Below are positions 1 through 49,811 of a DNA stretch of 64,000 nt, in pieces. The translations under genes were made by a program, and so were the position numbers. The notes under the pieces were generated by a model that saw only the letters and a program-made list of their open reading frames with translations, did not search any database and was not told the DNA's origin. The stretch is from an uncultured bacterium. GTDB taxonomy: Bacteria; Patescibacteriota; Minisyncoccia; Minisyncoccales; RBG-13-42-11. The number at the start of each line of letters is the position of its first letter. The first letter of the stretch is position 1. The stretch is from positions 460,073 to 524,072 of the forward strand of contig CAWBPO010000001.1 of the NCBI GenBank assembly GCA_963790795.1, in the 5' to 3' direction.

Positions 1-836
1 CTACTGTGTTGCGTGATTCTTGTCCCCGCGCCGATCTTCTAAATCGCCATGCACATAAATCGGGCCTTTGATGGTTGCTGTGTTGTTCTGTCCGAATGTC
101 AAATTGCCAATTATCTCGGTAGGACCGAGCTGAAAACCTGTTGTACCATTCGGGAAAACAAATGAACCTTCTACGACTACCGCCTTCTTTGGCTTGTCTT
201 CCAAGTTGTAATATCAAAGCTGGTCGGTAAGGTTACATCTTGCGGATCGCAGGCTTGACCTTGTGCGCCGATAAAAGTATTGGTGTCTTCTTCAATATCT
301 GAAAATCCGCTGGAAGCATCTGAAAAATCGGTCTGCCAGCCAGTGAATATGAATTTAAATCCGCAAGATTCGGCGGAAAAGAACTTCAGCAGAAGGCAAA
401 GAAACTTCAAAATCCCAGACATCAGTTGATGAAGAATCGTAAACGACTGCAGGAGTTATGGTCAAACCCAAAAGCGAACCGGAATAAATTACGCCGTTGC
501 GTTTAGCCACAACATCAAGAGCGTTAGCAAAAATCATCGAACTGCCGATGTTTCCGCTGCCGTTATTCATATTGAAAACCCAAAGTGCCTGAATTATTTA
601 CCGTAATTTGTTTGTTCACGTTATCGCCCGGCAAAAGCCCCATCGGTTCTGTCGGATAGAACTCCAAGTACCGGCAGCTAGTGAAAAGTCCAAAGTGGCG
701 GCTGTAAAAGTATTAGCGCCGTCTCCTTCGTTATCTAAATAATAAGATATTGTTTCCATTACAGCCGAAAGCCCGCTCCAGTTAAGAGCTATAATCACCA
801 AAATACTGTAATTTTTAATAACGACTTTTTTATCAT
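1..836 (-). pseudogene. TasA/camelysin-like secreted protein, SipW-substrate class, frame-disrupted (paralog 3)
   Basis: Minus-strand pieces whose frame changes about five times read as one protein ending at TAG 1-3. Pieces: ATG at 836 MIKKSLLKITVF; LNWSGLSAVMETISYYLDNEGDGANTFTAATLDFSL (now in the sipW frame); PGDNVNKQITVNNSGTLGFQYE; then ORFs 355-570, 177-422 and 1-204. Signal peptide plus YFSDTETS-like box as in the 2581-3477 ORF. Confidence 0.5.
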
Positions 837-1359
837 ATTTATGTCCGTTAACTGGCGGATTTTTTTTCTTTTTTATTTCTCCAAAAATTTTTCTGATTTC
901 ATCGTAAATAATAATCGCTGCCGGGACGATAATAATCAAAGCGAATCCTATTGGTTTTTTGGCAAAATCCACGGCATATCCCAAATAAGGAACGGAAAAT
1001 AATACTTTGCCTAAAATATCTGTTTTTGCAATTTCTCTGGTATCGGGCGCATCATTGGCGTCGCCTTTGGTGATATAAATCGGCTCCCCTCCCTGAACTT
1101 TCATATCGTAAATTCTGTGGGTGGTCGGCGCTTTGGTTTTGCTGTAAGGCCCGAAAGTTATCACATCGCCGATTTTGTAATCTGTTGCAGGCTTTACCAC
1201 TACTATGCTTCCCGTATTGATTGCCGGCTCCATTGAACCTGACTGGACAACCAGCACTTTGTAATTTCCCGGAATCGGAAAAGCGGAAACAATCAGTAAA
1301 ATCGCAATCAGAACTATGAAAGCAATCACTATGTAATAAATTATTTTCAAAGATTTCAT
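616..1359 (-). CDS. sipW: Signal peptidase I, SipW/archaeal-ER type (S26B)
   Basis: N-terminal TM followed by VVQSGSMEPAINTGSIVVVKP (catalytic Ser box), APTTHRIY (His) and TKGDANDAPD boxes, then a C-terminal TM. The last ~75 codons of the listed ORF look like the signal peptide of the next gene, so the true stop is probably near 850. Confidence 0.8.
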   Translation of the reverse strand: MKSLKIIYYIVIAFIVLIAILLIVSAFPIPGNYKVLVVQSGSMEPAINTGSIVVVKPATDYKIGDVITFGPYSKTKAPTTHRIYDMKVQGGEPIYITKGDANDAPDTREIAKTDILGKVLFSVPYLGYAVDFAKKPIGFALIIIVPAAIIIYDEIRKIFGEIKKKKNPPVNGHKYDKKVVIKNYSILVIIALNWSGLSAVMETISYYLDNEGDGANTFTAATLDFSLAAGTWSSIRQNRWGFCRAIT

Positions 1360-1468
1360 TTTTTCTTATTCTTTTTAATCAAAAATCATTAAAATCTTTA
1401 TGAGTTGCCTCAACCTAACCACAAAGAAAGTTGTGAGGCAACCTAAAAAATTTCAACTTTTTGCTTTA

Positions 1469-2125
1469 TTATTGGCTTGTGTCTTGACCTAATTCAAAGG
1501 TCAATACCAACAGTTGTGCTTATCGCCTTGAATAATATTATCTCAACAGCCAGTATCAACACTGACCAAGTCATGCTAATATAACTTGTTCCACTAGCAT
1601 CGCTAATGCATAAATTTGTCATATGTAGTTAGAAGCTGCTATCACTAGATCAGCTTCACCGTTATAAATCAGTATCTCCAGGCCATCCATTGGCCATTAT
1701 TGTTAGCTCAACAATATAGATATCAGCACTCCATTAGTTCCTGCTTAATTCAACACCATAGTAGCAGTCAAGATCTCCACCGTCATCTTCTGTACATCAG
1801 TTTCTGGTTCTGGTTAGCTCATCTGTGTCAGCTAAAGTAATACTCATCTAAAATCAAGATAACCAGCGTAGACTTCCGTCATTTATTAAGTGTCCAAGTA
1901 ATACCTGCCTGAATCGCCTGGGTTTAGCATCTTGTTACATGTGAATTATCACTAGCAGTTACTGTATACTTCTCGATCCGTCCAACTGTCAAGGTTTAAT
2001 GTTCCGGCGGCAAAAGTATTTCCGGTTGAAGTTTCAGTGTCAGAGAAGTAAGCAATTGTTCCACCAACTGCTATTGCAGCTACTGCACCAATCACGCTTA
2101 AGCTGATTATTAATTTCTTGTTCAT
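1469..2125 (-). pseudogene. TasA/camelysin-like SipW-substrate, heavily frame-disrupted (paralog 2)
   Basis: ATG at 2125 gives MNKKLIISLSVIGAVAAIAVGGTIAYFSDTETSTGNTFAAGTLNL, nearly identical in pattern to the 3477 start. Recognisable pieces then continue in shifting frames (NPGDSGRYYLDT, EDDGGDLD, DNIIQGDK, DL-ELGQDTSQ**). No ORF of 60 aa or more lies between the sipW start (1359) and 2195 on either strand. Confidence 0.5.
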
Positions 2126-2194
2126 GTTTTTTTTACTAATTTTCTTTCTAATAACTTCGACCTTTAATAATTTATTACTAATTTCTTACTATAT

Positions 2195-3477
2195 TTACTC
2201 TGTTTGTCCGCAAACGAAATTAGGATTGTTTCTTGACTGCTCGGTGTAGAAAACCAAGTTTGCCAAGAAAGAATCTGTCTGCGCTTTGTTGTAACCGTTA
2301 ACTTCTGCTCCCGAACCATCACAGGTTATTGTTCCGTCTCCTCCAACTGTTTGATTTCCAAAACACCACGCTAAACCTAAATTTTTTGTGGTGCTTCCAA
2401 TTAACGGACCAGTTCCTGTTGTGGAATCATAAATCGCGAGCATGTTAATCGTGTCAAGCACGTATGAACCAATTGCGCTTTCCGTTGCTGGTTCATAAAC
2501 GCCATTACCGTTCTCATCTCTCCAAACAAATAATTTGAGGTAATTTGATAATTCACCAACTTCTGGAGTGATATCTCCTGCTACTTGCTCGGATTGATTG
2601 ATGCGTTTTCATTGTCTTCTTTTTCGGTAACACTCATACAAACCCAGCCGTTATTGTTGTAGTTGTGCAAGCTGATTACGTTTATTCCCCTGTCGCCGGG
2701 CTTTACGTCGTTGAAGTTGAAGAATTTTTCATTCGCCAAATCCTTCAAGCCCCAAAGCTGACAATGAGTTCTGAAGTAATCGTTTTGGTCGCATTGGCCG
2801 TCAATGACCAATTTGTACAAAAGACCGCCGGGATTTGTTGAAGGATTACCCTGAAAATCATCTGGCTCCCAGTTTTTAACTTTGATTTGGAGCGTGTTAT
2901 CTCCTTGTAAAATCCACTGAGAAATTTGTACACCAGAATAAACATCAGTAGGTGGGAAATAATTGAATTCTGTATTATCGCCGCCTACTAAATTGCCGTT
3001 AAGGTAAACTTCATAGCTGTTATCTGCTCCGACATTCAACTGTAAAGTGGCTCCGGTAATCGGACCCCACCATTCAAAGGTTTTCTCGAAATTGTAAATT
3101 ACATCATGGGTTGTATCAGCTGGTAAGGTTGGGTCGGTTGCCCAAATCCAAACCACTCCGGGTATGGAAGTTGTCCATCTTTCGTTATAAGGAGGAGTGA
3201 CTAAAACAGCAGCGTGAGGAAAGGCGACCGGATCACTACCGCCTATTGTTCCTGTTACTATATCTGAAGTGTCGCTTTGAATGCCGACACTGCAAGTTTT
3301 ACAATCAACATCATTGTAAGTTTGTTTTGTGTGGTCAATTTTTAAATCAATTGCACCTGCCACAAAAATATTACCGGCTGATGTTTCAGTGTTGGAAAAA
3401 TAAGCAATTGTTCCGCCGATTGCCACTGCCGCAACTACACCGATTACGCTTAAACTAATAAGAATTTTTTTGTTCAT
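2195..3477 (-). pseudogene. TasA/camelysin-like SipW-substrate with extra C-terminal domains, one frame change near 2585 (paralog 1)
   Basis: ORF 2581-3477 starts MNKKILISLSVIGVVAAVAIGGTIAYFSNTETSAGNIFVAGAIDLKIDH (SipW-cognate signal class). After its stop the sequence continues in another frame as EQVAGDITPEVGELSNYLKLFVWRDENGNG and runs into ORF 2195-2461. Confidence 0.6.
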
Positions 3478-3545
3478 ATTTAGTTCATTATTTTAATTTA
3501 TAATTTTTTACGACCTTTACCTGGTCTCCGTATAAAATGTTTTTA

Positions 3546-3687
3546 GGAGCTCAACTCCCCGCAAGGGAGCCTCTCGCTCCCTTTTCAGGGAACTAAGCTC
3601 CCGCTAAACCCTCCTATTTTTTATGGAGTCCAAGCCCCTACGCCTAATCAATTTCTAGCAATTGATTAGATTTAGAGGTTTGGACTC
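3546..3687 (-). promoter_or_regulatory. Candidate structured 5' leader upstream of the TasA-like gene (long hairpin plus three-way junction)
   Basis: Read on the minus strand: hairpin GAGTCCAA...TTGGACTC (3626-3687) with inner stem CTAATCAATT/AATTGATTAG. It is followed by GGAGCTTA..TGAGCTCC (3546-3602) enclosing three small GGGA/TCCC stems. Confidence 0.3.
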
Positions 3688-3700
3688 TTATTAAATTTTC

Positions 3701-3729
3701 AAAAAGCAAAAACGCAGCTTAAAACTGCG
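3701..3729 (-). terminator. Intrinsic terminator-like hairpin inside the 3478-4062 spacer
   Basis: Minus strand CGCAG-TTTTAAG-CTGCG followed by TTTTTGCTTTTTG. Confidence 0.4.
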
Positions 3730-3784
3730 CAATAAAAAAACCCGACCCTCCGGTTTATATCTTTTAAATTTTTTGTGATTAGAG

Positions 3785-3793
3785 ATTCTATCA
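3785..3793 (-). promoter_or_regulatory. Extended -10 promoter element TGATAGAAT
   Basis: Minus strand TGATAGAAT embedded in the palindrome GTGAT..ATCAC. Same -10 flavour (TAGAAT) as other promoters in the window. Confidence 0.35.
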
Positions 3794-3882
3794 CTAATAT
3801 ACTGATTCCCCTCCTCTAATCATTTGTTATGGTGGCTAATTTCTCTGTTTTACTTTTACACTAAGCAGGGAATTATGTCAAC

Positions 3883-3949
3883 CCCCACACCTAAGGAGCA
3901 TAAATTTTATTTTTCGGTGGGCAGTGTCCAATGCTCTTTAGGTGTGGGG
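3883..3949. repeat. 19-bp inverted repeat with a 29-nt spacer
   Basis: CCCCACACCTAAGGAGCAT (3883-3901) pairs with ATGCTCTTTAGGTGTGGGG (3931-3949), one mismatch. TGTCCTA occurs three times just downstream at 3978, 3991 and 4010. Confidence 0.6.
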
Positions 3950-4062
3950 ACTAAACCCCACTCTATAAATTACTAATGTCCTACTTATGTTGTCCTACCT
4001 ATATATGTATGTCCTATCTTGTTTAACGTGTAACGCAAATCTCGCTGGCGTGAGGAAAGACA

Positions 4063-4547
4063 TTACGTTTCAGCTAGCCCAGGAGCACAAACTTTGAATC
4101 CGTACCAGCTTAGTATCTCTGTAACAGTATAACCAGTATCATAAGTCCCTGTAAGTACAGTCGCTGGTAAGTCAGGAGTATATGTCAGGTATAAACAGTC
4201 CGATTACCTGGATCAATGGTATTTCAGGTATATATGTAGAACCATACAAGGTCTTAAATCGGTCAATCCACTGCCGCTACTGCGTATTGTATATAGCAGT
4301 AGTAGTGGTGCTACGATAGTACCTGCAGCACTGCAAGTAAATATACCTTTATTGTCGGCCATATTCTGACCGATAGCATTTAAAATAGCATTAACATTGC
4401 TAATTCTTTGGCTATTTCTGGCTTGGGCAAATTGTCTTGGCCGGGTTAATAGCAATTAAAACCACGGCTGCTAAAATGGCGATAATACCGATAACAACCA
4501 AGATTTCAATTAAAGTGAAACCCTTTTTGTTTCTTTGTTTTTTTCAT
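4063..4547 (-). pseudogene. Type IV pilin (likely major pilin), frame-disrupted
   Basis: ATG at 4547 gives MKKTKKQKGFTLIEILVVIGIIAILAAVVLIAINPA (prepilin G/FTLIE site plus hydrophobic helix). Continuation runs in other frames: RQFAQARNSQRISNVNAILNAIGQN (ORF 4213-4455), STYIPEIPL, then LTYTPDLPATVLTGTYDTGYTVTEILSWYGFKVCAPGLAET*, ending at TAA 4063-4065. Confidence 0.65.
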
Positions 4548-4623
4548 AGATTAAATTATTAATTTGATATTTTAATAATTTTCCAATAAATCGACCTTTT
4601 AATTGTTTTAATGACGATTTGAT

Positions 4624-4652
4624 ATATTAACAGAATGATATAATTTTGTCAA
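4624..4652 (-). promoter_or_regulatory. Sigma70-type promoter for the pilin gene
   Basis: Minus strand TTGACA (4647-4652), 17-nt spacer, TAATAT (4624-4629), about 75 nt upstream of the ATG at 4547. Confidence 0.5.
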
Positions 4653-4670
4653 ATACGCAACCATTAAAGA

Positions 4671-7600
4671 TTAAGACGTTTCTTTCCAAGAATTAATGTC
4701 AATATTTTGTTGCGTTTCGATCGGCGGAGGGGGTGGCGGATTGGCGGTGTAAATTATCACACAGGTTTTTGTTTCGGCTGCCGCGATCGTTCCCGAACAG
4801 TCGGGCGAGTTTGACACGCTGTATTGCGGATCAATCTCTGAGGTAATATTATAATCCCCCGGATTTAAAGTCCTTAATTCTCCGGTCTCCGAACCTTGAA
4901 ATGTTTGTGGCGAAGGATTATCAATAGTTATCGTAAAATCTGTGGATGTTTTGTTGGATGTACCGCTACTATTGTTGACTTGCGTTATCACAACCAATGT
5001 CGGCGGTAATTCATTAACAGAGGGCTCAAGAATCTCCTCGCCGATAATTTGGAATATGTCGGCCATTTCCTCTGATGTAGGCGAAATGTAAAAATGGTCG
5101 CCATCATGGTTTTCGTTATAAATCAAAGTTGAATCATTGGAAGTACCTGCCTCATTCTTAGAACCAGGTTGATGACCGCCAATTGTAAAATCACCAGTGG
5201 CCAGTCCGGCAATGAAGTCGCGAGGGGCCGGATTGTATTGTCCGTCTGAACCAGCGTTACCAAAGTGAATCGTATAAATCTCGGTCTGTACAAGCCCTTC
5301 GGAGCCGGTTTTGGCGTTGTCGGCGTTAGTTTTCGCCCAATTTATTGCAGATTGGGAAGTTTGTCCGGATCCGCTCTTTTGATTTGTGGCGTTTAAGTTG
5401 ACATTAGTGCCGTCGGAAATCAGAATTAGAACTTTTTTCCCAACAGGTAAACCATGATTTGTCAATTCGGTAGCCCTACCATAATAGCATCACCCAAATT
5501 AGTCCAACTACTTACGGAATCTAATTCATTATCAATGGCAGCATAAAGGCCAGTCGCAGGAACGCTATAATAAATTTTAACTGTTATATAATTAATAGAC
5601 TGTAAAACTCCAATCGGCGCGTTATTGGTTACTCGAAGTACGAAATTACCATTATTGAAATTACTGTTATTCCACGCACCATTGCCTGTCCCACCCCAAG
5701 TATTTGAAGGTCCGCCTAACGTATATGGGGCATCCGCACTAGTAAGACCTGGCGTTGTTTGCTGATTGGGCGTCCAGTTTCCAGCATTGTTCCCGGAAAG
5801 CGCCACCGTTATGGTGCTCGCGGGGATGTAACTTACAACTGCTCTGATTGCGCCCACTCGTACGGTATTAGTATTAACAGATGTTTTTAACACCCCAACT
5901 TCAAGATCGGCACTGGAATTCTTGACGAAATCGGGAATATCGATTGTTTGAGTTCTGGAAATGCATCCGCTGGTGTTCGTTGTGACGAGATTCGCTACTG
6001 CATCGCTATCTCCAGAGACCCTAACAAAGGTTTTATAAGAACCGCCCGTAGCCCCCGAGGCAACATCCCATGTAAAAACTTAAACGCTGGTAATGATGCT
6101 TCCGTGGGCACCTCAAGACAAATTGATGTTTACCGACTCTCGTTGGTTATTGGTATTACTTGAGATGGAGTCGTTACTGCTGCAACTGGAAATACAGGCT
6201 TCGTCCACATCTGATTCGTTGCCTGACCATGCGCTATAGATACCGGTACACTGGGAACCGACTCCCAGTATTTCTAGTCACTGGTGCGAAGACTTGGCGT
6301 ACAAGGTTACCTCAATACCCTCTATAGTTGCACCAACTGGGGTTGTATTCGATGAGTAGTATTAAAACCAAAATTTATATAACCTTGCTGGTCGCCATTG
6401 GTCGCATCAGTCGCATACAAGCTATCGTTTAACTGGGCGTTATCAGGATTCATCCATCGGTCTAAACTACTTGGGCTGGTTTTGTGCCCTCCTGGAGCGT
6501 TAAGGCCTGTACTTGTTGAGGTTGCACGACTACCATAAGAACTTGTAAGAGTCCCGATTATATCAGCACTAACACCACTATCATTACCGAATCGGCCGAC
6601 TCCAACCTGAAATGGAGAAGCGAAAGAACCGTAATAATCCAATAAGGCCTGCGCTGCTTCCTTTTCGTCTGGAACAGATTGGGGGTCGCTGAACATACTA
6701 ATACGTCTATCCAACATCATCCCTGTGTCTGGCGGCGACACTTGTTTTTTAAAAGCAATGGCCAAACTATGTTATCGCCTTTTTTAAGTTTGACCGTACC
6801 GTTATCAAAATCTCCATAACACAAACTGTTACCATCGAATCGGTGCTCCCCGCCCAATCAGAAACATTATAGCCGGTAATCGCGCTGACGGTTATCGGAA
6901 AATTACTCACGGTGCCAAATACCATCGGCGGCCGTAAGTTTAATCTGTTGTTGTGTACTGCTCGGATAACTCTTTCCGTTCACCGTCAATTGCTCCGGCA
7001 ACACGCCATCACTGGAAATAACAACCGTTAACGACGCAGTTTGCGGTTTTAGCGTGTTAATGATATTGCAGGTTTTATAGTCGTTAACTCCCAGTTCTAA
7101 GGTGCCATAACTTCCACTTCCATCATCAACGCAGTCACCGGTATATAACGTCGTATATTCAGAATCGGGCGTTTCGGTTATATTGTAAGTTCCTTGATCC
7201 TTAATCTGTGGCTGACCCAGTTGATCTGATGGAAGATCGGCGCCGCCCACCTGAAACGGCCTGAACTGGTCGGCTGGTTTGGCGCCATCGCCATAGGAAA
7301 ACACATTGACCACAATCTTTGACGGTGGCGAATACTGGGGGTTATAGATTGTAGAGTTTATTTCCATTTTGCTAAATGCGCCATTTTGGGCCGGATATTC
7401 TGCGGTGGAAACGATATTTACGGTTTTTTGATGGGTGACTGGATCATAGTCGGAATTATTTATCAATACTGACAATCAACCGATAAACCAGAGCCAGTGC
7501 CTGAGGCGTTCTGGTTTTTGGCGATTTCCAACAGCGCCTTGTTAATGCACGATTCAGCCATTCCCTTGCTAATTCTTTTGTATTCGCTATTCAAAGAATC

Positions 7601-7724
7601 AAATTGTAAAAAAATCCGACCGAGCCACTGTAAACGCCGAGCCGACTAAAACCACGGACATTATGACCGTAGATATTAGCGCGATATACCCCCCATTTTT
7701 ATTTTGCAAAATTTGGTGGTTCAT
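4671..7724 (-). pseudogene. One or more large pilus-associated surface proteins (PilX-like N-terminus, vWA-like domain, Pro-rich C-terminal Ig-like region), frame-disrupted
   Basis: ATG at 7724 gives MNHQILQNKNGGYIALISTVIMSVVLVGSA (pilin-like anchor). ORFs 6903-7475, 6322-6765, 5462-5893 and 4671-5465 lie in different frames with no intervening start signals. A vWA-like region (TNLGDAI.. then GKKVLILISDGT .. IYTIHFG) spans the 5465 junction. Confidence 0.45.
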
Positions 7725-7736
7725 ATTTTTGAAGGA

Positions 7737-8216
7737 TTATTTACGAAGATACGCGGTTGATTCAAAATGTGAAGTTAAAATCATACCATTAGGCGTGTTG
7801 CTATTCAAATCAAACCCATAGTTTATTCCCTTTTCTCCGTTTCCAGTAGCGGATATGTCAACAAAAAATAAATTAGTAACCTGTACAGTGCTGTTATTAA
7901 GCGGCTCGCCAGAGTCATCATTTCTTTTTAATATTAGATTTTCTCCATCCGCTCAAATTCCAAACTATCACCCGATACAGTTGTCGTAAATGGCCTTCTT
8001 CCGGCACTTGACGCCCTCCGCATTCGAAACCGCCCAATTAATTTTTGCCAGCAAAAATTCTCCTTCCTCTTGCATCATCGCCCGGCTCTGATTTTTGCCA
8101 CTAGATTCAATTACACTAAAAACTGCAGCAAACACCCCACCAAATAGTATAGCAAAAAGAGCGAGGTAGACAACGACTTCAATCAGTGTAAAACCTGATT
8201 GTTGTTTCGTTTTCAT
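7737..8216 (-). pseudogene. Prepilin-type minor pilin with a short out-of-frame patch
   Basis: MKTKQQSGFTLIEVVVYLALFAILFGG from ATG 8216. The same frame resumes after three stops clustered at 7945-7972 and runs to TAA 7737-7739. Confidence 0.6.
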
Positions 8217-8217
8217 A

Positions 8218-9766
8218 TTATGGCGCAATTATTGACAAGTAGCCATGGCCTCCGATATTGGAACCAACGAAAAAGTTATTACCTTCGCAATCCAGGGACG
8301 GTTCAAAGAGGTCGTCTGATCGGGCGTACAAAGTCAAATCCAAATCGCCCCAATCTTCAATATGAGAAACGTCGCTTATATTGAAAATTTTCAATCCAGT
8401 TTTAAGCAGTAAAAACGCCAGATTTTCACGGATAGGATTCCATCAACGTTAACATTGATATCATCTTTTGATCCTAATATCGTAAAGGTGCTGGTTGCCA
8501 AATTACTATTGACCAAAATATAGAATTGGTATTATGAGAACTTTTCCAAGATATAAATTATTGCCCAGCAAATAAAGCTTTACCTTCGCTTGATCCTGGC
8601 TCATTAAAACCCCACGGTGGCGTACCCGACGGTTTGCATACCGATTCGCTCTCCTGCGGATTGGTAACTACGCAACTAGGATCATGTACATCCAAAACTA
8701 TCAATTCCTGGTCATTGGACGTTGCTAAATACGCATATTTGCCGCGAACTGAAATTGCATTAACCGCATTACCAACTGAATAATAACTTCTGCCTGTAAT
8801 TTTTGCCGGATGCGCACGGTCAAGATGAGCATCAATAATATGAAATTCTGGACCATTGCTATTTCCATCTTCATCGATACCAGTTGCTTGCAATCCAAGA
8901 TAAATATAGCCGTCTTTAAAAAAATGCTGTTGCCAATTCCTTGCGTACCCCCAACATTGTCTAAATCGAAATCAACTATTTTTTCCGGCGTAATGCTGTC
9001 GGGATCGGTCACATCAATAACTTGCAACTGGTTCGCGGGACTATTATTGGCAACGTACGCGTAAATTTTATGATTTGTCGTATCTTCGGCAACCGCCACC
9101 GCATTCAAGCCGTCAGCGGTACTATTGGCGTTATCGATTTTACCGATAAGTAACGGGTGAAAACCGATTGGAATATCAAAGACGAAAAATGTCGGGTCGG
9201 CATTGTGAGGGGTTTTACCAATGGTCACATAAAGCTTACCTTCATAAGCGTCAACATCGCTAATCGCGTAATCGCCGGAAATTCCGCGATGATCGAAAAG
9301 TCAGTGTTAATGGTATTTTTAATTTTCGGGTCTTTCCAGGCTTCGGCATTGGGTAGTAAAATTGAGCTGCAGGTATCGCCGCCAACGGCGTTGTTAAAAT
9401 TGGTAACAACTGCGGAAAGAACGGTAGTGCCACGGCGGCCGCTGTCTTCTGGAAATTCAACTGTCGCAGTTACCAACTTTGTAAAATAATCTGTTTGCAC
9501 AACATTTACGCTCGAGGCAAGCCGTCATCAGTAGTAGTGGTCGCCACTGGATTAACCAAATTAAAATCCTTGCGGCTGTCAGGCTGCGCTTTTTCCAACA
9601 GCCCTTGGGCGATATTCAACGCCTCGGCATTGGTCTGACTGTCAATAATCATCGCCTGATTGCCAAACGATACCAGAATGACCGCAGTCAACACTAAAAT
9701 TAAAATAGACATTGCCAGTAGCATTTCAAGCGTTGAAAATCCTTTTTGATAAATCGCGCTTTTCAT
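8218..9766 (-). pseudogene. Prepilin-like N-terminus fused to an LVIVD-type beta-propeller protein, frame-disrupted
   Basis: MKSAIYQKGFSTLEMLLAMSILILVLTAVIL from ATG 9766. ORFs 9225-9500, 8725-9228 and 8558-8893 lie in different frames and carry repeated KIYAYVANN..LQVIDVTDP and GKYAYLATSNDQELIVLDVHDPS units. Terminal piece ends at TAA 8218-8220. Confidence 0.5.
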
Positions 9767-9792
9767 ATCTACTAAAAATAAAAAATATAACA

Positions 9793-10314
9793 CTAGAAAT
9801 CAATTCGGCCTTCACTATTAACCGTAATTACGGAACTATGGCCGCCATCATCCTTTAGAGTAACATTTGTCGATGTAGCGACATTTCCTGAAATTCGGTC
9901 AAACACAATATCCACTGTCGAAGAGCCGACGATGTAAACTGTATGACTGTCAAAGGGGATAATTTCATTGTTTGGATCGGCGTCACTATAAGCCTCTCCT
10001 TGGAAAATTACAACTTCGCGTTTTGCCGGGTCAAAATGAACACCATGCTGCTTTGCCAATTCAGCACAAATGAGCCCCAAAACACATATTATTAACTGCC
10101 AGGCTACGCGCCCGTTGCAAAGCGCTAACCACCATATCACGGTCGTTACAGAACATACCCTGAGCCAACTATCCATGCTCAAAAATAATCCCAAGCCAAC
10201 CAGTATGATTAAAATTACTATCACAACGATAATTTCAATCAATGTAAACCCACCACCCCTTTCCCGAAAATCGGTGCGGGATTTATCTGGATTAGAGATG
10301 TTGAGTGACTCCAT
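9793..10314 (-). CDS. Prepilin-type minor pilin (GspH-like) with an internal out-of-frame segment
   Basis: GGGFTLIEIIVVIVILIILVGLGLF prepilin motif. The middle of the open frame is Trp/Cys-rich and atypical, while an alternative frame reads NDRDMVVSALQRARSLAVNNMCFG. Confidence 0.6.
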   Translation of the reverse strand: MESLNISNPDKSRTDFRERGGGFTLIEIIVVIVILIILVGLGLFLSMDSWLRVCSVTTVIWWLALCNGRVAWQLIICVLGLICAELAKQHGVHFDPAKREVVIFQGEAYSDADPNNEIIPFDSHTVYIVGSSTVDIVFDRISGNVATSTNVTLKDDGGHSSVITVNSEGRIDF

Positions 10315-11362
10315 ATATCGGCGTAATTATTGAAATAACTACAAATCCCACTATAATTCCCATTAATATCATCATCAGGGGCTCCAAAGTATTGGAAAGA
10401 TTTTTAGTCATCTCGTCAACTTCCGTTTCATAAAATTCCGCAAGATAAAGCAGGGAACCGCTTAAGTTTCCTGTTGCCTCCCCTACCGATAACATTTGAG
10501 GAATTAAAATTGGGAAAAAACGAGGATAATTTTCAAATTGATTTGAAATTTTTTTGCCCTTCAAAATGTTTTCGCCCATCTTCTCAAGCATTTTTTTATA
10601 AACTATGTTAGGCGTCGTCTCTGCCGTTATTTTTATCGCTTCAATCAGCGTCACATTGCCTTTTAAAAGCACGCTCAAAGTGCGGGAAATGTTGGCTAAA
10701 TGATAATTTTGCAAAAGTTGGCCGAATATGGGAATTGAAGGCATAATGTTATTAATAAAAATCTGCACTTTAGACAATCTTAATATAAAAATTACAGCTA
10801 TAATAAAAATTATTAAGCCGAGCAAAAAATAAAAACCATAGTGTGTTAAAAAACTGCTCACACCAATAAGAATTCTGGTGGTAATGGGCAGCTGGACTTT
10901 CAAACTCGTAAGAATGGGTAAAATCTTGGGAAAGACAAAAACAATCAAAAGAGTGGTAATCCCGATCGTGGCTAAGGCAACGAAAATGGGATAGACAAGC
11001 GCTCCTACTATCTTGCGGTTAAGCATTCTTCTTTTTTTCAATTCTTCAGCCAAATAATTCAAGTTTTGGTGAAGAAATCCGGTATTTTCCCCGATACGGA
11101 TGACGTTAATTATAAAATCGCCGAAAATATTTCTAAAGCGTTTGAGGCCGACGTACAGGGGCTGGCCATTAGCTACGCTTTGCATCAAACTATCAATAAT
11201 TCTTTTCTGGAGATTTGAACGAGTTTGTTCTCTAATCATTGCCAAACTTTTTAAAATCGGAATGCCGGCTTTCAATAAAAAAGAAAGGCGCTTGACAAAG
11301 AGCTCCTTTTCATGGGCTGATAAGCGATTTGAAAATGAAAATGAAAATTTCTTCTTATTCAT
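10292..11362 (-). CDS. pilC: Type IV pilus / T2SS platform protein, PilC/GspF family
   Basis: 356 aa with two GspF-like repeats and three TM segments. Overlaps pilB by 8 nt. Confidence 0.9.
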   Translation of the reverse strand: MNKKKFSFSFSNRLSAHEKELFVKRLSFLLKAGIPILKSLAMIREQTRSNLQKRIIDSLMQSVANGQPLYVGLKRFRNIFGDFIINVIRIGENTGFLHQNLNYLAEELKKRRMLNRKIVGALVYPIFVALATIGITTLLIVFVFPKILPILTSLKVQLPITTRILIGVSSFLTHYGFYFLLGLIIFIIAVIFILRLSKVQIFINNIMPSIPIFGQLLQNYHLANISRTLSVLLKGNVTLIEAIKITAETTPNIVYKKMLEKMGENILKGKKISNQFENYPRFFPILIPQMLSVGEATGNLSGSLLYLAEFYETEVDEMTKNLSNTLEPLMMILMGIIVGFVVISIITPIYGVTQHL

Positions 11363-12584
11363 TGATTACTCTTAAAATCTCCTCAATAGTAGTTATTCCT
11401 TTTAAAGCTTTTTCGAAACCATCTTCAAACATCGTGGCCATTCCGTCGGCAATGGCAATTTGTTTCATTTTAGCGGACGAATCGCGTCGCAAAATAGATT
11501 CTCTGATAACATCATTAACCACCAAAACTTCATTAATGCAAATCCTTCCCCGATAGCCGGTCTGGTTGCACTGAGGACAACCCTGCCCCCGATAGAAATT
11601 CTCCGCTTTCTCTAAAAGTTTCTGGGGTATTACTTCGGATAAACTTTGATATTCGGCTTTGGTTATCTTGTAAGAAATTTTACAGTGCTCGCAAATTTCC
11701 CGGACCAATCGCTGGGCAATCACCAAATTCACGGTTGAAGCGATTAAAAACGATTCTATTTCCATGTCAAACAAGCGGACAATGGCGGTAACTGAATCGG
11801 TGGTATGAATGGTAGAAAGAAAAAGATGGCCGGTCAAAGCGGTGTTTACGGCTAAATTCGCAGTCTCAAGATCCCGAATTTCACCCACCATAATAATATT
11901 CGGATCCTGACGCAAAATGGAACGAAGTCCTTTGGCAAAAGTCAGATTAGTTCGGGTATTAACCTGAATTTGGCTAACGCCTTCAATATTATATTCTATC
12001 GGATCTTCAATGGTAATAATTGATACCTCTTTATTGTTGAGAGATTTAATAAGAGTATAAAGAGTCGTGGTTTTCCCCGAACCAGTGGGGCCGGTAGCTA
12101 AAATCATGCCCCAGGGTTTTCTTAGAGCTTTTTTAATTTTTAAAATATTATTTTCACCAAACCCCAAAGTTGCCAGAGTGAATTGTTCCACTTTGTCCGC
12201 CAATAATCTAAGAACGGCGTTTTCGCCGTGATAAGTCGGGATAATGGATACCCTGATATCTATATTTCTCTCTTTAATATAATAGCTGAATCGGCCGTCC
12301 TGAGTCGCCTGATGTTCGTCGGTTCTTAAACCGCAAAGGATTTTGATTCTGGATATCACCTCGGGATGAAAACCTTTTGGAAAAGTATAAATTTCCTGTA
12401 AAACTCCGTCAATTCGGAATCTGATTTTCATCCCCTCTTCCAAAGGATCAATATGAATATCGGAAGCTTTCAAGCTGAAAGCATGTTCAATGAGATAATC
12501 AAGAAACCTAACAACGGAGGGCTCTATTTTTTGAGCCAATTGATTCTCAATATTTTTATAATAATCATTAGGATTTGTTTCCAT
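11355..12584 (-). CDS. pilB: Type IV pilus / T2SS assembly ATPase, PilB/GspE family
   Basis: Walker A GPTGSGKTTT, Asp box GEIRDLETA, His box STIHT, and the tetracysteine CEHC...CPQC motif. Confidence 0.92.
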   Translation of the reverse strand: METNPNDYYKNIENQLAQKIEPSVVRFLDYLIEHAFSLKASDIHIDPLEEGMKIRFRIDGVLQEIYTFPKGFHPEVISRIKILCGLRTDEHQATQDGRFSYYIKERNIDIRVSIIPTYHGENAVLRLLADKVEQFTLATLGFGENNILKIKKALRKPWGMILATGPTGSGKTTTLYTLIKSLNNKEVSIITIEDPIEYNIEGVSQIQVNTRTNLTFAKGLRSILRQDPNIIMVGEIRDLETANLAVNTALTGHLFLSTIHTTDSVTAIVRLFDMEIESFLIASTVNLVIAQRLVREICEHCKISYKITKAEYQSLSEVIPQKLLEKAENFYRGQGCPQCNQTGYRGRICINEVLVVNDVIRESILRRDSSAKMKQIAIADGMATMFEDGFEKALKGITTIEEILRVINE

Positions 12585-43626: not shown

Positions 43627-43804
43627 TTTATTTTAATAATTTCAAGATATCCGATTTTTTATACCGTCTATCTCTACGATTACCAAAACGAATGGCCTTG
43701 AGAACGCCTTTATTGTCCCAGTTTCTAAGGGTATTCGGGTGAACGTTTAATAGTTCACAAACCTGCTTCATTGTTAAAATCTCTGGTAATTTGTCTTTAT
43801 CCAT
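43627..43804 (-). pseudogene. Excisionase/MerR-type HTH protein, probably carrying a 1-nt frameshift
   Basis: ATG 43804 gives MDKDKLPEILTMKQVCELLNVHPNTLRNWDNKGVLKAIRFG, then stops after GGTAAATCGTAG. Removing one A of the AAA run gives ..NRRDRRYKKSDILKLLK*, ending at 43627. Confidence 0.5.
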
Positions 43805-44413: not shown

Positions 44414-45838
44414 ATGAACACTAATATCGAAACGAAAGTAATAAAAGTAAAAGACATAAGGCCAAATCCTAAAAATCCTAAAAAACACTGGGTAGAAAAA
44501 ATCTCGGAGAGCATGAAAGAAATGGGATATGTAGAACCGATTGTGTTGGATGAGAATAATATGATTCTGGCCGGCCACGGTAGATTAAAAGTATTGAAAG
44601 AAAACAGGGTTAAAGAAATAGAGGTCATAGTCAAAAGAGGGTTAACCGAAAAGCAAAAGGAAAAATACATGCTGTTAAGTAATAGACTGGTTGAAGCAGG
44701 AGGCTGGGATTTAGACCTCCTTAAAGAATTTGACGAATCTTTATTATTAGATTCGGGATTCAACGATGAAGATATGGACCAAATTTTTGGATTGGAAACA
44801 GAGGATAATTTTGACTTAAATAAGGAAATAGAAAAAATTACTCATGGCAAGAGACGTGTAAAAAACGGCGATCTCTGGGAACTGGGAAATCATAAACTTG
44901 TTATAGGAGACTGTACGAAAGAAAAAAGCTGGAAGATATTGTTTGGAGATGAAAAATATGATTTTCTATTTAGTGATCCGCCGTACCGAATCGGATATGG
45001 AATAGGAAACAGGAAGCAGAAGACAAAAGAAGGAATGGTCATTCAAAAATTTAGGACATACGACACAATCGGTCCGACAACCAAAGACGGAAAACCATTA
45101 AAAAATAATCCACCAAACACTAAATTCGGATTTAAACAAAACAGAGAATATTTAGGTGTAAAACAGTTAGGAGGGGTACCAGAATATGATGATTGGTTAA
45201 GTATCGCAAATAAATATCAAAATCCGATCGGCGCCAATATAATGATATTTGAGAATTGGAGAAATACGGTGGGATTATGGCAGGCTATTGAAAAATATTG
45301 GAAGATAAGAAACATGGTGATTTGGTTTCTGTACAATAGATGCCAAGGTTTTTCGGCAAAACACAAGTTTTTTTCGAAGTACGACATCGCTCCCCTAGCC
45401 GATAAAGGAAGGGCGGTACACAACGAAGGATATGAAGAAGAACTTGAAAAATATTTGGAAACCAAAGGACAAAGATTATTAGATACATACGAAGTAATTC
45501 TTTATGGTCAAAAAGGTAAAAGTTATTGGGATAAAAAGAAAGGAACAAGATGGGCTAAAGTAAACGACCATATAAGTTGGACAGCGGAAACCGGATCGTC
45601 CAGCGGACAATCCGTCGTATTCGGGACGAAACCCTTACCTATATTGGTGCCTTTTGTCAAAATCCTTTCTCCAAGAAACGGAATAGTGGCCGAGCCATTT
45701 GCTGGAAGCGGATCAACAATTTTAGCTTCAGAAATCATGCATAGAAAATGCCTCGCGATAGAAATTTCAGACATATATGGGGAAGTAATTATAAATAGGT
45801 TCGAACGTTTTACTAATATAAAAGCTAAAAAACTATGA
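44414..45838 (+). CDS. ParB-like nuclease domain fused to a DNA methyltransferase (beta-class N6A/N4C)
   Basis: N-terminal IKVKDIRPNPKNPKKH..ILAGHGRL is ParB/Srx-like. LFSDPPYRIGYG is motif IV and AEPFAGSGSTILA is motif I. Confidence 0.8.
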   Translation: MNTNIETKVIKVKDIRPNPKNPKKHWVEKISESMKEMGYVEPIVLDENNMILAGHGRLKVLKENRVKEIEVIVKRGLTEKQKEKYMLLSNRLVEAGGWDLDLLKEFDESLLLDSGFNDEDMDQIFGLETEDNFDLNKEIEKITHGKRRVKNGDLWELGNHKLVIGDCTKEKSWKILFGDEKYDFLFSDPPYRIGYGIGNRKQKTKEGMVIQKFRTYDTIGPTTKDGKPLKNNPPNTKFGFKQNREYLGVKQLGGVPEYDDWLSIANKYQNPIGANIMIFENWRNTVGLWQAIEKYWKIRNMVIWFLYNRCQGFSAKHKFFSKYDIAPLADKGRAVHNEGYEEELEKYLETKGQRLLDTYEVILYGQKGKSYWDKKKGTRWAKVNDHISWTAETGSSSGQSVVFGTKPLPILVPFVKILSPRNGIVAEPFAGSGSTILASEIMHRKCLAIEISDIYGEVIINRFERFTNIKAKKL

Positions 45839-46275
45839 AAAGAGATAAACTCAAAAATTCACTAATTGAGCAGTTGAAAGAAATGCCAATCCTACAATTC
45901 TCTTTGAGGAAAGCTGGTATTAGCAGGGCCAGTTATTACAGGTGGATGAAAGACCCGGAATTTGCCAAAGAAGCCGATGCAGCCATTGCTGAGGGCGAGG
46001 CATTAATTACGGATTTAAGCCAGTCTCAGCTGATTTCTCTTATCCGCGACCGTAATTTCCCAGCCCTGCAACTCTGGCTCAAAGCACACCATCCGAAGTA
46101 TAGCAATAAAGTCGAACTGACCGGCCACCTTAATATAAAGGAAGAACCTTTAACTCCCGAGCAGGAAGAATTGGTTGAAAAAGCACTCGGGTTGGCCGGA
46201 TTATTAGAAACTAAACAAATTCAACAAAACCATGAAGGAGATACCTCAAAATCTACCGGAGGGAATAAATCTTGA
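45835..46275 (+). CDS. HTH protein in the terminase small-subunit position
   Basis: SLRKAGISRASYYRWMKDPEF HTH. ATGA overlap with the methyltransferase stop, and located upstream of TerL. Confidence 0.5.
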   Translation: MKRDKLKNSLIEQLKEMPILQFSLRKAGISRASYYRWMKDPEFAKEADAAIAEGEALITDLSQSQLISLIRDRNFPALQLWLKAHHPKYSNKVELTGHLNIKEEPLTPEQEELVEKALGLAGLLETKQIQQNHEGDTSKSTGGNKS

Positions 46276-47692
46276 GATTTTAAAACAAATTCTCAAGGAT
46301 AGAAAAGTAATGATAGCCATTACCCAACGAAGCTTCTTTTACTTCTTCTACATTTATTTTGGTCGCTACATTAAATGTCCAATTGCACCCTTTCACTTTG
46401 AAATGTTTGGAATCGCTCAGAATGAAAAAGTGAAGCGAGCCGGAGTAATGACTTTCCGTAATTCCGCAAAGTCGACGATTCTAAACACCGCTTACAGTCT
46501 GTGGGCCATTATGGGCACACCTCAAAAGAAACACGTTGTCATAGCCAGCCAAACTCAGCAAAGATCCAAAGACCATTTAATGAATATCAGGAAAGAAATC
46601 GAAGGCAATCAGTTATTAAGCGAAAACCTCGGCCCTTTTAGTGTTGGGGAAGATCGGTGGGGTGCTACCACTTTGATAATTCCTGCTTACAAAGCGAGAA
46701 TTAGTGCCATCTCGGTAGAAGAAGGTATCCGCGGTCTTAAAGAAGGTCCTAACCGACCGGATTTGATTATCGCCGACGACATCGAAGACTCAAATTCCGT
46801 GAAAACAAGAGAGATGAGAGATAAAACATTCAACTGGTTTACCGGAGAACTCATACCTTTAGGAGAAACCGATACCAAAGTAATAGTCCTCGGCAATTTC
46901 CTTTATCAGGACTCGGTTCTTTTTAGGCTTGGAGAAATGATTAAAGAAGGAAAAATGAAAGGAGTTTTTCTTCACGTTCCGCTTGTTGATAAAAATAACA
47001 AGATTGCCTGGCCGGGAAAATTCCCTTCTTTGGAAGCGGTAGAAGAATTAAGGCAAAGTGTTGGCAACGAAATAACCTGGCAAAGAGACTTCTTGCTGCG
47101 TGCTATTCCCGATGACTTTCAGATTGTTCATCCTGAACATATTCATTATTACGACGGATTACCGAGCCAAGAAAGAGGTAATGGATATAAGTATACGTGG
47201 ACGGCTGTTGACCCGGCTATTTCAGAAAAAAGCAGCGCGGACTTTACAGCCATGGTTTCGGCCCAGATACACGGCAGTGAAGAAAACTTAAAAATTTATA
47301 TCTTACCCAATCCAATTAATAAACGAATGGATTTCCCGACTGCAGTAGAACAAATTAAAAGAATATCAAAAATCCTCGGCAAAGGAAGACCGACTAAAGT
47401 TTTTATTGAGAGTAATGCTTTCCAAGATTCTCTAGCTCAACAATTAAAATACCAAAATTACCTCGTAGAAAGCGTAAAAACATCGGGAGATAAAAAAGAA
47501 AGACTCAATCTTGTTAGTCCGCTGATTGAAAACGGCACCATTCTTTTTCCGCGAAAAGGAGCAGAAGAACTTATTGAACAATTGGTTAATTTTGGGATTG
47601 AAAAACATGATGATTTAGTAGATGCTTTTACCATGCTTGTTTTTAAAACATTGGAAAATAATCGCCCAATTCCAAGTATAACCTGGATTTAG
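46232..47692 (+). CDS. terL: Phage terminase large subunit
   Basis: ATPase region TFRNSAKST ... LIIADDIED, and a C-terminal RNase H-like nuclease region AVDPA..SADFTA..ESNAFQ..HDDLVDA. Confidence 0.82.
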   Translation: MKEIPQNLPEGINLEILKQILKDRKVMIAITQRSFFYFFYIYFGRYIKCPIAPFHFEMFGIAQNEKVKRAGVMTFRNSAKSTILNTAYSLWAIMGTPQKKHVVIASQTQQRSKDHLMNIRKEIEGNQLLSENLGPFSVGEDRWGATTLIIPAYKARISAISVEEGIRGLKEGPNRPDLIIADDIEDSNSVKTREMRDKTFNWFTGELIPLGETDTKVIVLGNFLYQDSVLFRLGEMIKEGKMKGVFLHVPLVDKNNKIAWPGKFPSLEAVEELRQSVGNEITWQRDFLLRAIPDDFQIVHPEHIHYYDGLPSQERGNGYKYTWTAVDPAISEKSSADFTAMVSAQIHGSEENLKIYILPNPINKRMDFPTAVEQIKRISKILGKGRPTKVFIESNAFQDSLAQQLKYQNYLVESVKTSGDKKERLNLVSPLIENGTILFPRKGAEELIEQLVNFGIEKHDDLVDAFTMLVFKTLENNRPIPSITWI

Positions 47693-47782
47693 TTATCAAC
47701 TGATGGGGTCTGGACTCCCTAGAAGGGTTGCGGCATCCTTGTTCCAAAGGTCGAGAATATAACTAATTGAGCGTTTAAGACC

Positions 47783-49105
47783 ATGGAACAAGCAACAATA
47801 CAACCGAATACTCCCCAATCACCTATTATTGCTCCTCATATAAAGTATTGTCTGTATGCCAGGAAATCAAGCGAAACCGAAGAAAGACAAATTCTCAGCA
47901 TCGATAGTCAGGTTAAAGAAATGTTAGAAATTGGCCAGCGAGACAATCTAGAAGTTGTAGAAATAAAAAGAGAATCTCATTCGGCAAAAGATTCGGGTCG
48001 GAGACCCGTATTTGCCCAGATGCTTAAAGAAATTAACGAAGGAAAGTTCGGCGGCATCCTCACCTGGGCACCAGACCGACTCAGCAGAAATGCAGGAGAT
48101 CTTGGCTGTTTGGTTGATTTGATGGATCAGAAGATACTTCAGGAAATTAGAACCTACGGACAAAGATTTACCAACTCTCCAAACGAAAAGTTTTTACTGA
48201 TGATTCTGGGAAGCCAGGCAAAACTAGAAAACGACAATAAAAGCGTTAATGTAAAACGCGGCTTGAGAACCAAAGTTGAAATGGGGTTATGGCCGAGCGT
48301 TGCACCGACCGGATACCTGAACGAAAAAAGAAGCGATCGAAAAGGATACGTAATAATAGATCCTTATAGATCCCCTGTTATCAAGCAAATGTTTGAAAAG
48401 GTTGCACGCGAAGAATTGAGCGGAAGAAAATTATACCAATGGTTGAAGGACATAAGATTTAAGGCAAGGAGCGGAAAACCGCTCTCCCTCAGTAACGTCT
48501 ATTCGATTCTAAAAAACCCTTTCTATTACGGAACCTTTGAATTCCCCAAGAACAGCGGAAATTGGTATGCAGGAAAGCATACCCCCATAATCACGAAAGA
48601 ATTATATGATAAGGTACAGGAGCAGTTGGCAAAAGAATCTCACGCAAGAATAAACAACAAAGAATTCGCTTTTACGCGACTGCTGACTTGCGGTTTGTGC
48701 GGTTCGGGTGTTACCGCCGAAGAAAAGTTTAAAAAGCTCAAAGACGGCTCGGTAAATCGTCACGTTTATTACGGCTGCACCAGAAGCAGAGATTTGAACT
48801 GCAAATGCGGATATATACGGGAAGAAGATTTAATTAAACAGCTAATAGACCTGTTGGATAAAATAAATCTGAATAAGCTCGGCGTAAAAGAAAATCTGGA
48901 AGAAGAAAGAAAAAGATACGATAAATTCAGAAAAGCCGTACTGGGCCTAAGAGAGAAAGACGAACAGGCGGTAAAAGAAATTAACATCAAGAATTACGCC
49001 AGATATGTCCTTACGGAAGGAACCATATTGGAAAAAAGGGAGCTTCTTTATAACCTCAGGAGTAAATTGATACTGAAGCATAAGGTGGTTTATCTGGAAA
49101 AATAA
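47783..49105 (+). CDS. Large serine recombinase (integrase type)
   Basis: CLYARKSSETEERQILSIDSQ catalytic-Ser region, a recombinase domain, a zinc beta-ribbon CGLCGS...YYGC and a coiled-coil tail. Confidence 0.9.
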   Translation: MEQATIQPNTPQSPIIAPHIKYCLYARKSSETEERQILSIDSQVKEMLEIGQRDNLEVVEIKRESHSAKDSGRRPVFAQMLKEINEGKFGGILTWAPDRLSRNAGDLGCLVDLMDQKILQEIRTYGQRFTNSPNEKFLLMILGSQAKLENDNKSVNVKRGLRTKVEMGLWPSVAPTGYLNEKRSDRKGYVIIDPYRSPVIKQMFEKVAREELSGRKLYQWLKDIRFKARSGKPLSLSNVYSILKNPFYYGTFEFPKNSGNWYAGKHTPIITKELYDKVQEQLAKESHARINNKEFAFTRLLTCGLCGSGVTAEEKFKKLKDGSVNRHVYYGCTRSRDLNCKCGYIREEDLIKQLIDLLDKINLNKLGVKENLEEERKRYDKFRKAVLGLREKDEQAVKEINIKNYARYVLTEGTILEKRELLYNLRSKLILKHKVVYLEK

Positions 49106-49150
49106 AGAGATTCGGGTATAATAAAAGTATAAAATTAAATATCGCCTAAA

Positions 49151-49294
49151 CCTTATAATTCTATAAGGCATGGCACAAAAACCCATCGAAGATATTAAGC
49201 TCGTCGTCAGAGCACTCTTCGATGGGTCATATCGGGAAACCGGTATGGGTCCCGCAAGGGATCGCTGGCGGCGAGCTTTGTGGTTTCCGCCGGC
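49151..49294 (+). ncRNA. Candidate structured RNA / long 5' leader (five hairpins, three capped by GNRA loops)
   Basis: Hairpins: CCTTATA-ATTC-TATAAGG; CCCATCGAAGA...TCTTCGATGGG; CATATCGG-GAAA-CCGGTATG; GGTCCC-GCAA-GGGATC; GCTGGCGG...CCGCCGGC. The segment is locally GC-rich, with a GGTATAAT box at 49115-49122. Confidence 0.4.
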
Positions 49295-49309
49295 CCAAAA
49301 AGGAAAATT

Positions 49310-49783
49310 ATGAAAATCCAAAAAAGTTCAAGACATTCCAAAATTACCGGAAACTTCGGCGAGAATCTAATTTTATATTGGCTATCAAAATATAATTTCG
49401 AATGTGCGAATGTTGACCATACGGGCATAGATATAATTGCCAAGAACCCACATACAAAAGAGCTAATGGGGATTTCGGTCAAAAGCAGAAGCAGAGGCGA
49501 AGGTAAAGAAAAAGAATCCGTAAGCATCGGCAAAGAGGATTTCGATAAAATCAGAAAGGCATGTAATTCTTTCGGCTGCGTTCCTTATTTCGCCATCGTG
49601 GTAGACGCGAAAGATAAAATTTATTGCTTTATTCTCCCCTTAAAAAGGATATTGAAAATGTTTCCAGTGGGCAAAAATACTTTGGAATGGAAAATGGGAG
49701 AAGAATATTTGAACAAGTACTCTAGAGATTCAGAAATTAAAGTATTCGAGTTTACCCACAGAACTTACCGCTGGTGGAGGTAG
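49310..49783 (+). CDS. PD-(D/E)XK nuclease-fold-like protein
   Basis: MKIQKSS start at 49310 after AAAAAGGAAAA. VDHTGIDIIAKN...GISVKSRS resembles a D...(E/S)xK core. Confidence 0.5.
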   Translation: MKIQKSSRHSKITGNFGENLILYWLSKYNFECANVDHTGIDIIAKNPHTKELMGISVKSRSRGEGKEKESVSIGKEDFDKIRKACNSFGCVPYFAIVVDAKDKIYCFILPLKRILKMFPVGKNTLEWKMGEEYLNKYSRDSEIKVFEFTHRTYRWWR

Positions 49784-49811
49784 CCCCACTTTAGAAAAGA
49801 CTTAAAACAAA

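Follow-up and report, generated by a model that had tools for sequence, protein, structure and literature searches.

Type IV pili of the Com type, as described in Patescibacteria of the candidate phyla radiation (CPR) and in Gram-positive bacteria, combine a PilB ATPase and a PilC platform protein with prepilins whose N-terminal helix carries a methylation motif, while the SipW-TasA system is known from Bacillus. In Clostridium perfringens, two reports link SipW-processed matrix proteins (BsaA/SipW) to type IV pilus genes (PMC11580942, PMC7395162). Genes of both kinds lie at one end of a 64,000-nucleotide stretch of DNA from an uncultured bacterium (contig CAWBPO010000001.1 of assembly GCA_963790795.1, positions 460,073 to 524,072; hereafter, the window), where every pilin-like and every TasA-like gene is affected by breaks of the reading frame. 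These breaks are most probably residual insertion-deletion (indel) errors left in a long-read metagenome consensus where read support was poor, at a strain-variable locus. That they are artifacts of one kind or another, chimeric consensus included, can be held with high confidence, and the underlying genes are almost certainly real and functional.

Families were assigned from Pfam and NCBIfam matches and from the gene tables of related contigs. On these grounds, positions 1 to 10314 (minus strand) are predicted to form a type IV pilus and SipW/TasA locus of a CPR (Nealsonbacteria-like) organism. The large minus-strand operon runs in the order pilB, pilC, pilinA, LVIVD pilin, pilinB, giant pilin, major pilin, TasA1, TasA2, sipW, and a large gene that is left incomplete where the window edge cuts into the operon. 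Its gene order is fully shared with an intact locus from a Candidatus Nealsonbacteria metagenome-assembled genome (MAG; L001), with 79% identity between the PilC proteins. As in CPR and Com-type pili, a PilB-type ATPase and a PilC-type platform protein (annotated as T2SSE and T2SSF in the syntenic loci of relatives) accompany prepilins with N_methyl and ComGE matches, a single N-terminus being ComGE-like. No prepilin peptidase gene was identified within the window, beyond which no look was taken. Likewise, as in Bacillus, an archaeal-type SipW lies among camelysin/TasA-family proteins with a SipW-type signal peptide (matches to TIGR02228, TIGR04088, and PF12389). By gene content this is a SipW/TasA-type fiber system, the formation of fibers being putative.

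Differences from the described systems were also apparent. Unlike CPR and Com-type pili, the locus encodes one pilin that bears an LVIVD beta-propeller and another, pilin-like protein about 1,000 amino acids long that has vWA and SpaA-like domains. Unlike the SipW-TasA and SipW-BsaA systems, it has three putative substrates (about 200, about 430, and more than 1,000 amino acids, the last with an LTD domain) in a CPR genome, and no TapA-like partner was identified. Below the noise, the locus is of known kinds, a CPR/Gram-positive type IV pilus operon adjoining a SipW/TasA-type cassette, and the frame changes hold no new biological feature.

A preliminary description of this DNA had reported frame breaks in the TasA-like and prepilin-like genes. 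These proved to be real and more numerous than stated. Short stop-free pieces in alternating frames tile the whole of 1-10314 on the minus strand; in the remainder of the window, open reading frames (ORFs) are dense and full length, and the small ORFs among them represent complete genes. The minimal number of frame switches that gives a stop-free reading of each gene, a lower bound that requires no homology, summed to 37 over all genes: none in pilB, pilC, or pilinA, 6 in the LVIVD pilin, 2 in pilinB, 10 in the giant pilin, 4 in the major pilin, 1 in TasA1, 10 in TasA2 (the level of shuffled sequence, 10.4), and 4 in sipW together with the next gene. Nucleotide alignments revealed further breaks that are invisible to a stop-based count, bringing the estimate for the 10.3 kb to 49 events or more. 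All 5 pilin-like and all 3 TasA-like genes are affected, with 2 to 12 breaks in every gene except TasA1. A frameshift-aware protein-DNA alignment, written for this analysis, was run with intact homologues as queries and shuffled DNA as the control. Scores lay far above those of shuffled DNA (z = 34 for the middle of TasA2, 15 for pilinA, and 6 for the middle of the giant gene), and alignments to distant homologues never crossed a stop codon.

In contrast, no frame breaks were detected in the core genes (about 43 kb). A core stretch compared with an independent Logan contig (run ERR10755944) showed 4 mismatches and no gaps in 1,956 nucleotides. As had been claimed, pilB and pilC are uninterrupted; each gave a single full-length high-scoring segment pair (79 to 87% amino acid identity) with no frameshift. 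The same claim for sipW holds for the body of the gene, which is 89 to 91% identical to the SipW proteins of relatives in a single frame, but not for its end. A 1-nucleotide deletion at about 842 relative to L011, three codons ahead of the stop, removes the stop and fuses sipW in frame to the next gene (ORF 616-1359).

A contig with the same alleles, L014 (contig_56495 of European Nucleotide Archive [ENA] assembly ERZ25039515; 6,893 bp), was reached through a 595-amino-acid protein in the 90%-identity cluster of a window fragment, and it could be aligned end to end with window positions 10963-4062. In L014, pilinA, the LVIVD pilin, and pilinB are single ORFs (lengths in Table 1), and distant homologues align with them without frameshift. 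The suggestion to look for population variants that restore the frames thus had a positive outcome over 4.4 to 10.2 kb. Compared with L014, the window carries about 27 private indels that break the frame between 10161 and 4440, comprising 22 deletion events (18 of them single base) and 5 single-base insertions; in-frame indels number only 3. Such 1- to 2-nucleotide indels against an independent sequence of the same allele in which the ORFs are kept (10200-4400) are what an artifact would produce. L014 also has three private breaks of its own, in pilC (at 39), the giant gene (4365; window 6593), and the major pilin (6558; window 4412), at which the window and distant homologues stay in frame. 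As the two contigs are broken at different sites, the breaks are best understood as independent noise on one underlying sequence.

A frameshift-aware scan was also run on the whole locus of several relatives, whose assembly type was deduced from contig names only. No frameshifts were found in L001 ("scaffold_" name, Illumina-style) or L015 ("k141_" name), and the genes of L010 and L011, the Joint Genome Institute (JGI) contigs from which the query proteins came, had been called full length by JGI. The Flye-style "contig_N" relatives of ERZ25039515 had 3 to 5 (L008), 3 (L009), and 3 (L014) frameshifts, and two of those in L008 fall in the core gene pilC. Private breaks are therefore found at differing sites in the window, L014, L008, and L009, and are absent from assemblies of the locus that are short-read style by name. 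The contig from which the window was taken is 538,786 bp long, which for a CPR genome implies a long-read assembly.

The breaks resemble the indel errors of long-read, especially nanopore, metagenomes in being 1 to 2 nucleotides long, mostly deletions, and in splitting ORFs. In nanopore assemblies such residual indels depend on coverage, and near-finished quality is reached at about 40-fold (PMC9262707). However, the breaks described here differ from the usual nanopore errors in being sharply local, with a density of about 4.7 per kb in two accessory loci but no detected break across about 43 kb of core, and from the classical genome-wide homopolymer problem in their weak association with homopolymers. 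Given this localization and the weak link to homopolymers, the likely cause is that read support drops locally where the DNA varies between strains.

The second accessory locus is a type III restriction-modification (R-M) island at 39.5 to 43.6 kb, which is a second cluster of the same phenomenon and contradicts the earlier view that interruptions are confined to surface genes. In total, the island has at least 6 frameshifts and one stop, at a G+C content of about 31 to 33%. A break that had been placed in an AAA run of the helix-turn-helix gene at 43.68 kb was not confirmed, as this gene (43628-43804) is intact and matches HTH_17 over positions 2-47 of 51. Errors would concentrate at strain-variable DNA, i.e., at the pilus locus and the type III R-M island, if a strain-specific allele had few reads of the right strain behind its consensus or if reads from other alleles were pulled in at polishing. 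Core genes common to all strains would be covered at full depth and would yield a clean consensus. Indeed, the locus occurs in at least three versions in ERZ25039515 (L008, L009, and L014), and nucleotide similarity among relatives is lost directly beyond pilC, which makes the locus hypervariable at the population level. L015 has the closest PilB (95.8% amino acid identity), yet its pilB/pilC shares only 85% nucleotide identity and the remainder of its locus could not be aligned.

Phase variation, with surface antigens switched by slipped-strand mispairing at short homopolymers, was considered as an alternative. As in the phase-variable loci of Neisseria, Haemophilus, and Campylobacter, including type III mod phasevarions, the frame is lost here in surface-protein genes and in a type III mod gene, and surface-exposed genes of these kinds often phase-vary. 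A few breaks do lie in runs (T8 to T7 at 8925; G4 to G3 at 10161 and 5477). However, in a contingency locus each gene has one long repeat tract that acts as a single reversible switch, whereas the genes here have many breaks apiece, most of them outside repeats. No single slippage could switch on a gene with 2 to 12 breaks, and the number of breaks per gene thus excludes this mechanism for all genes but TasA1. Of the 18 single-base deletions relative to L014, 8 are at non-repeated bases, and 6 are in runs of at least 3, against 3.5 expected from composition. The claim that the breaks lie in short homopolymers therefore reduces to a weak tie. Moreover, no resolved break lies in a simple-sequence tract near a 5' end, as judged from the break contexts, no dedicated tract scan having been made. 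Phase variation is accordingly extremely improbable.

Other explanations of the break sites were also considered. Programmed frameshifting or transcriptional slippage does not fit, as the resolved breaks are off slippery motifs and long A/T tracts and there are too many per gene. A diversity-generating retroelement was set aside, since such elements produce substitutions and not indels. No shared motif that might indicate methylation-linked systematic error was evident by eye around the deletions at non-repeated bases. The locus is richer in G+C than the rest, as had been noted, but at 41.5% versus 36.7% it falls short of the 45 to 50% first estimated; the giant pilin gene alone reaches 44.8%. 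Base composition was rejected as the cause of the breaks, given that the broken R-M island is at 31 to 33% G+C and the intact L001 locus has the same offset (42.6% versus 36.4%).

Genuine recent pseudogenization of the pilins, TasA-like fibers, and R-M genes by numerous small indels, as might arise under pressure from phages or a host, would be in keeping with the restriction of the broken genes to accessory and surface loci, and the deletion bias matches the general mutational bias of bacteria. The indel spectrum argues against it. Nearly all events are 1 to 2 nucleotides, larger deletions are absent, and there is just one substitution-type stop (6082) against at least 49 breaks. Within near-identical stretches, indels and mismatches occur at about 1:1; in the giant gene outside one patch, about 10 mismatches to L014 stand against 8 indel events, and the mismatches are distributed evenly over codon positions (bigN, 3/4/1; bigC, 7/14/5). 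In mutation-accumulation and pseudogene studies, the natural ratio of indels to substitutions is nearer 1:10, and single-base indels are concentrated in runs, whereas about half of the single-base deletions here are at non-repeated bases. As a rough expectation, real neutral indels at about 1% of sites would be accompanied by many more substitutions and by several nonsense codons.

Selection on the frame-corrected genes points in the same direction. The ratio of nonsynonymous to synonymous substitution rates (dN/dS) between the window and relatives was 0.18 to 0.26 for the gene after sipW and 0.13 to 0.19 for TasA1, compared with 0.21 and 0.125 to 0.21, respectively, between intact homologues. 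The selection signature against more distant relatives is thus unchanged. The window branch shows no excess dN; for the gene after sipW, its length calculated from three pairwise dN values (about 0.10) lies between those of both intact relatives. The machinery genes pilB, pilC, and sipW remain conserved (dN/dS of about 0.08 to 0.13; 0.08 to 0.12 for pilB and pilC), and purifying selection on these genes with all of their substrates dead is biologically incoherent. Pseudogenization would also leave out of account the private frameshifts in contigs of the same naming style, even in pilC, and their absence from short-read-style relatives. It is therefore unlikely. A weaker form, in which some of the breaks are real and the strain is shedding or silencing pilins, TasA-like fibers, and type III R-M by an unusually indel-rich kind of mutation while keeping the machinery, is quite unlikely; if true, the locus would capture an episymbiotic CPR bacterium in the course of losing antigens. 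Of the two readings offered in the preliminary description, the evidence thus supports an error of consensus or assembly where strains vary and polishing was poor. The other, slippage-driven decay or phase variation, is unsupported in view of the several breaks per gene, the non-repeated bases, and the unchanged selection.

Several observations nevertheless weigh against residual consensus error as the explanation. The sequencing technology of the source was deduced only from the 538,786-bp contig and the naming of related contigs, and the cause of the local drop in quality is inferred. L014 is another strain (pilC about 80% identical), and it shows that these alleles exist in intact form but not that this strain has such a copy. 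The few substitutions relative to L014 look neutral (dN/dS of 1.0 to 1.25) and one creates a stop. Recent decay would also yield such neutral-looking substitutions and the stop, and to this extent they favor pseudogenization. For 1-4400, a near-identical comparator was not found, and more distant relatives were used. A better comparator for the middle of TasA2 was not found either, a SipW scan of JGI metagenomes returned 80 loci but none above 81% identity, and exact look-ups of the window PilC, PilB, and a neighboring 105-amino-acid protein in a contig index gave no match. Finally, break density is highly uneven (about 2% in TasA2, about 1% in the gene after sipW, 0.5% in the LVIVD pilin, and 0.08% in TasA1) and does not simply track divergence between relatives.

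Identity to L014 is itself a mosaic. Divergence is 13 to 22% in pilC and 1 to 10% from pilinA to pilinB, while the giant pilin gene is about 99.5% identical (0 to 3 mismatches per 300 nucleotides, one patch excepted) and the C-terminus of the major pilin is strongly divergent. The mosaic over 10963-4062 suggests either that strains recently exchanged pilin cassettes or that the contig is chimeric. A chimeric consensus, in which co-assembled alleles were blended so that part of the sequence exists in no real strain, is a subtype of the artifact explanation. It would fit the patchy distribution of mismatches between identical stretches (about 24 clustered in the 250-nucleotide patch 6355-6100), the contrast between a giant pilin differing by only 0.5% and a divergent pilC, the position of the worst stretch (the middle of TasA2) between conserved anchors, and the co-occurrence of at least three locus versions in one ENA assembly. 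Both the uneven break density and the 6355-6100 patch fit a mixed pile-up. However, blending and low depth are indistinguishable without reads, and the mosaic could be real recombination. As a separate explanation, chimeric consensus is very unlikely.

The damage differs from gene to gene (Table 1). TasA2 is the most damaged, with at least 10 to 12 frame changes within about 500 nucleotides. In TasA1, the sole break is a 1-nucleotide deletion at about 2604, at a non-repeated T (GC-ATC in the window versus GCTATT in 4 of 4 relatives), and amino acid identity to L008 is 90% upstream and downstream of the break alike. The gene after sipW has 73% amino acid identity in the frameshift-aware alignment, and its indels are mostly at non-repeated bases. 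The major pilin has 1-nucleotide insertions (GG to GGG at 4523 and C to CC at 4440) within its universally conserved N-terminal helix and at least two further frame changes in its C-terminal half. At least 12 private indels were found in the giant pilin, along with the substitution stop (TAA for CAA); an apparent second stop at 6115 is actually an insertion/deletion pair. Each of the three 1-nucleotide deletions in pilinB (8011, 7984, and 7951) is at a non-repeated base. Although its ORF is open, pilinA carries a compensating pair, the deletion at 10161 in the G4 run and an insertion at 10072, about 89 nucleotides apart, by which about 30 codons are scrambled.

Table 1. Coordinates of the genes and frame breaks described in the text (window positions; aa, amino acids)
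Feature	Position(s)	Strand	Basis and remarks
pilB	11355-12584	-	Intact; internal control
pilC	10292-11362	-	Intact; internal control
pilinA, prepilin	9793..10314	-	ORF open; intact 165-aa gene in L014
LVIVD pilin, pilin with C-terminal LVIVD beta-propeller	8218..9793	-	PF08309; ComGE-like N-terminus; 497-550 aa in relatives
LVIVD pilin, 9 indels	9521, 9283, 9174, 9154, 8925, 8578, 8536, 8529, 8436	-	L014 gene intact, 518 aa
pilinB, minor pilin	7737..8228	-	Intact 160-aa gene in L014
Giant pilin-like gene, vWA and SpaA-like domains	4671..7724	-	Alignment to L014; 835-1016 aa in relatives
Giant pilin, indels relative to L014	7615, 7465, 6918, 6837, 6763, 6355, 6289, 6245, 5477; insertion/deletion pair at ~6115	-	
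Major type IV pilin	4063..4547	-	Nucleotide alignment with L010, L011, L001, L009; L014 comparison
TasA1, long TasA/camelysin-like	2195..3477	-	PF12389, TIGR04088; ~426-434 aa in relatives
TasA2, short TasA/camelysin-like	1469..2125	-	Frameshift-aware alignment to L001 TasA203, z = 34; ~203 aa in relatives
sipW, archaeal-type signal peptidase I	838..1359	-	TIGR02228, E = 2.7e-37; body intact
Large gene after sipW, 5' part	1..836	-	TasA-like SipW-type signal peptide; LTD domain in relatives (999-1380 aa)
Gene after sipW, 8 frame-breaking indels	~803, 658, 567, 541, 527, 385, 200, 36	-	Nucleotide alignment with L008, L011, L001
Type III R-M res	41949-39558	-	ResIII match; tiled by 5 stop-free pieces whose frames alternate; 4 or more frameshifts; large deletions absent
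Type III R-M mod	43600-41918	-	N6_N4_Mtase match; in-frame stop at 42974 and frameshift pair at ~42460-42320

Two stretches between the genes of the pilus locus are also conserved. Just downstream of the major pilin gene, an element at 3975-4044 (minus strand) is 91 to 98% identical over 44 to 70 nucleotides in L009, L010, and L011, although the C-termini of the neighboring pilins differ strongly. TAGGACA occurs in this element three times at a spacing of about 20 nucleotides; the RNA fold of the element was not significant (z = 0.3), and it may be a candidate regulator-binding site upstream of the TasA cassette. A further stretch of about 400 nucleotides upstream of TasA1 (3478-3884) has nucleotide conservation with L001 and L009 (70 to 84% within longer alignments) and no obvious ORF. 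In relatives, the interval upstream of TasA1 sometimes holds a small GIY-YIG gene (L009 and L015). GIY-YIG nuclease genes occur at differing points of the pilus locus (L015, 6354-7031 and 11635-11892; L009, 5934-6179), and in one case the gene seems to be fused upstream of pilinA. As possible mobile elements, these genes could have a part in the shuffling of cassettes.

Adjoining the broken R-M island, an integrated-element-like block at 44414-50046 is intact. It encodes a fusion of ParB with an N6/N4 methyltransferase, an AlpA-like helix-turn-helix protein, a terminase-like protein, and a large serine recombinase, and is followed by a LOOT RNA (49143-49263, 103 bits) and then a tRNA-Gln.

Fragments of the window ORFs have been deposited as separate proteins (P0128, P0142, P0144, P0149, and P0150) in NCBI and ENA-derived collections, including a 264-amino-acid tail of the giant pilin, a 298-amino-acid head of TasA1, and a 247-amino-acid SipW fusion. 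P0128, P0149, and P0150 are cluster representatives, and two of these three clusters have no other members.

Overall, the locus is conserved and intact in relatives and appears to swap cassettes between strains. The importance of the frame breaks is small as biology and greater as quality control: at least 49 spurious breaks have turned about 10 genes into dozens of fragments in public protein databases. Strain-variable surface and defense loci can be the worst-polished parts of otherwise clean long-read MAGs, and these are the genes of most interest for host attachment and phage defense. Such loci would be miscounted as pseudogenes or read as "phase-variable."

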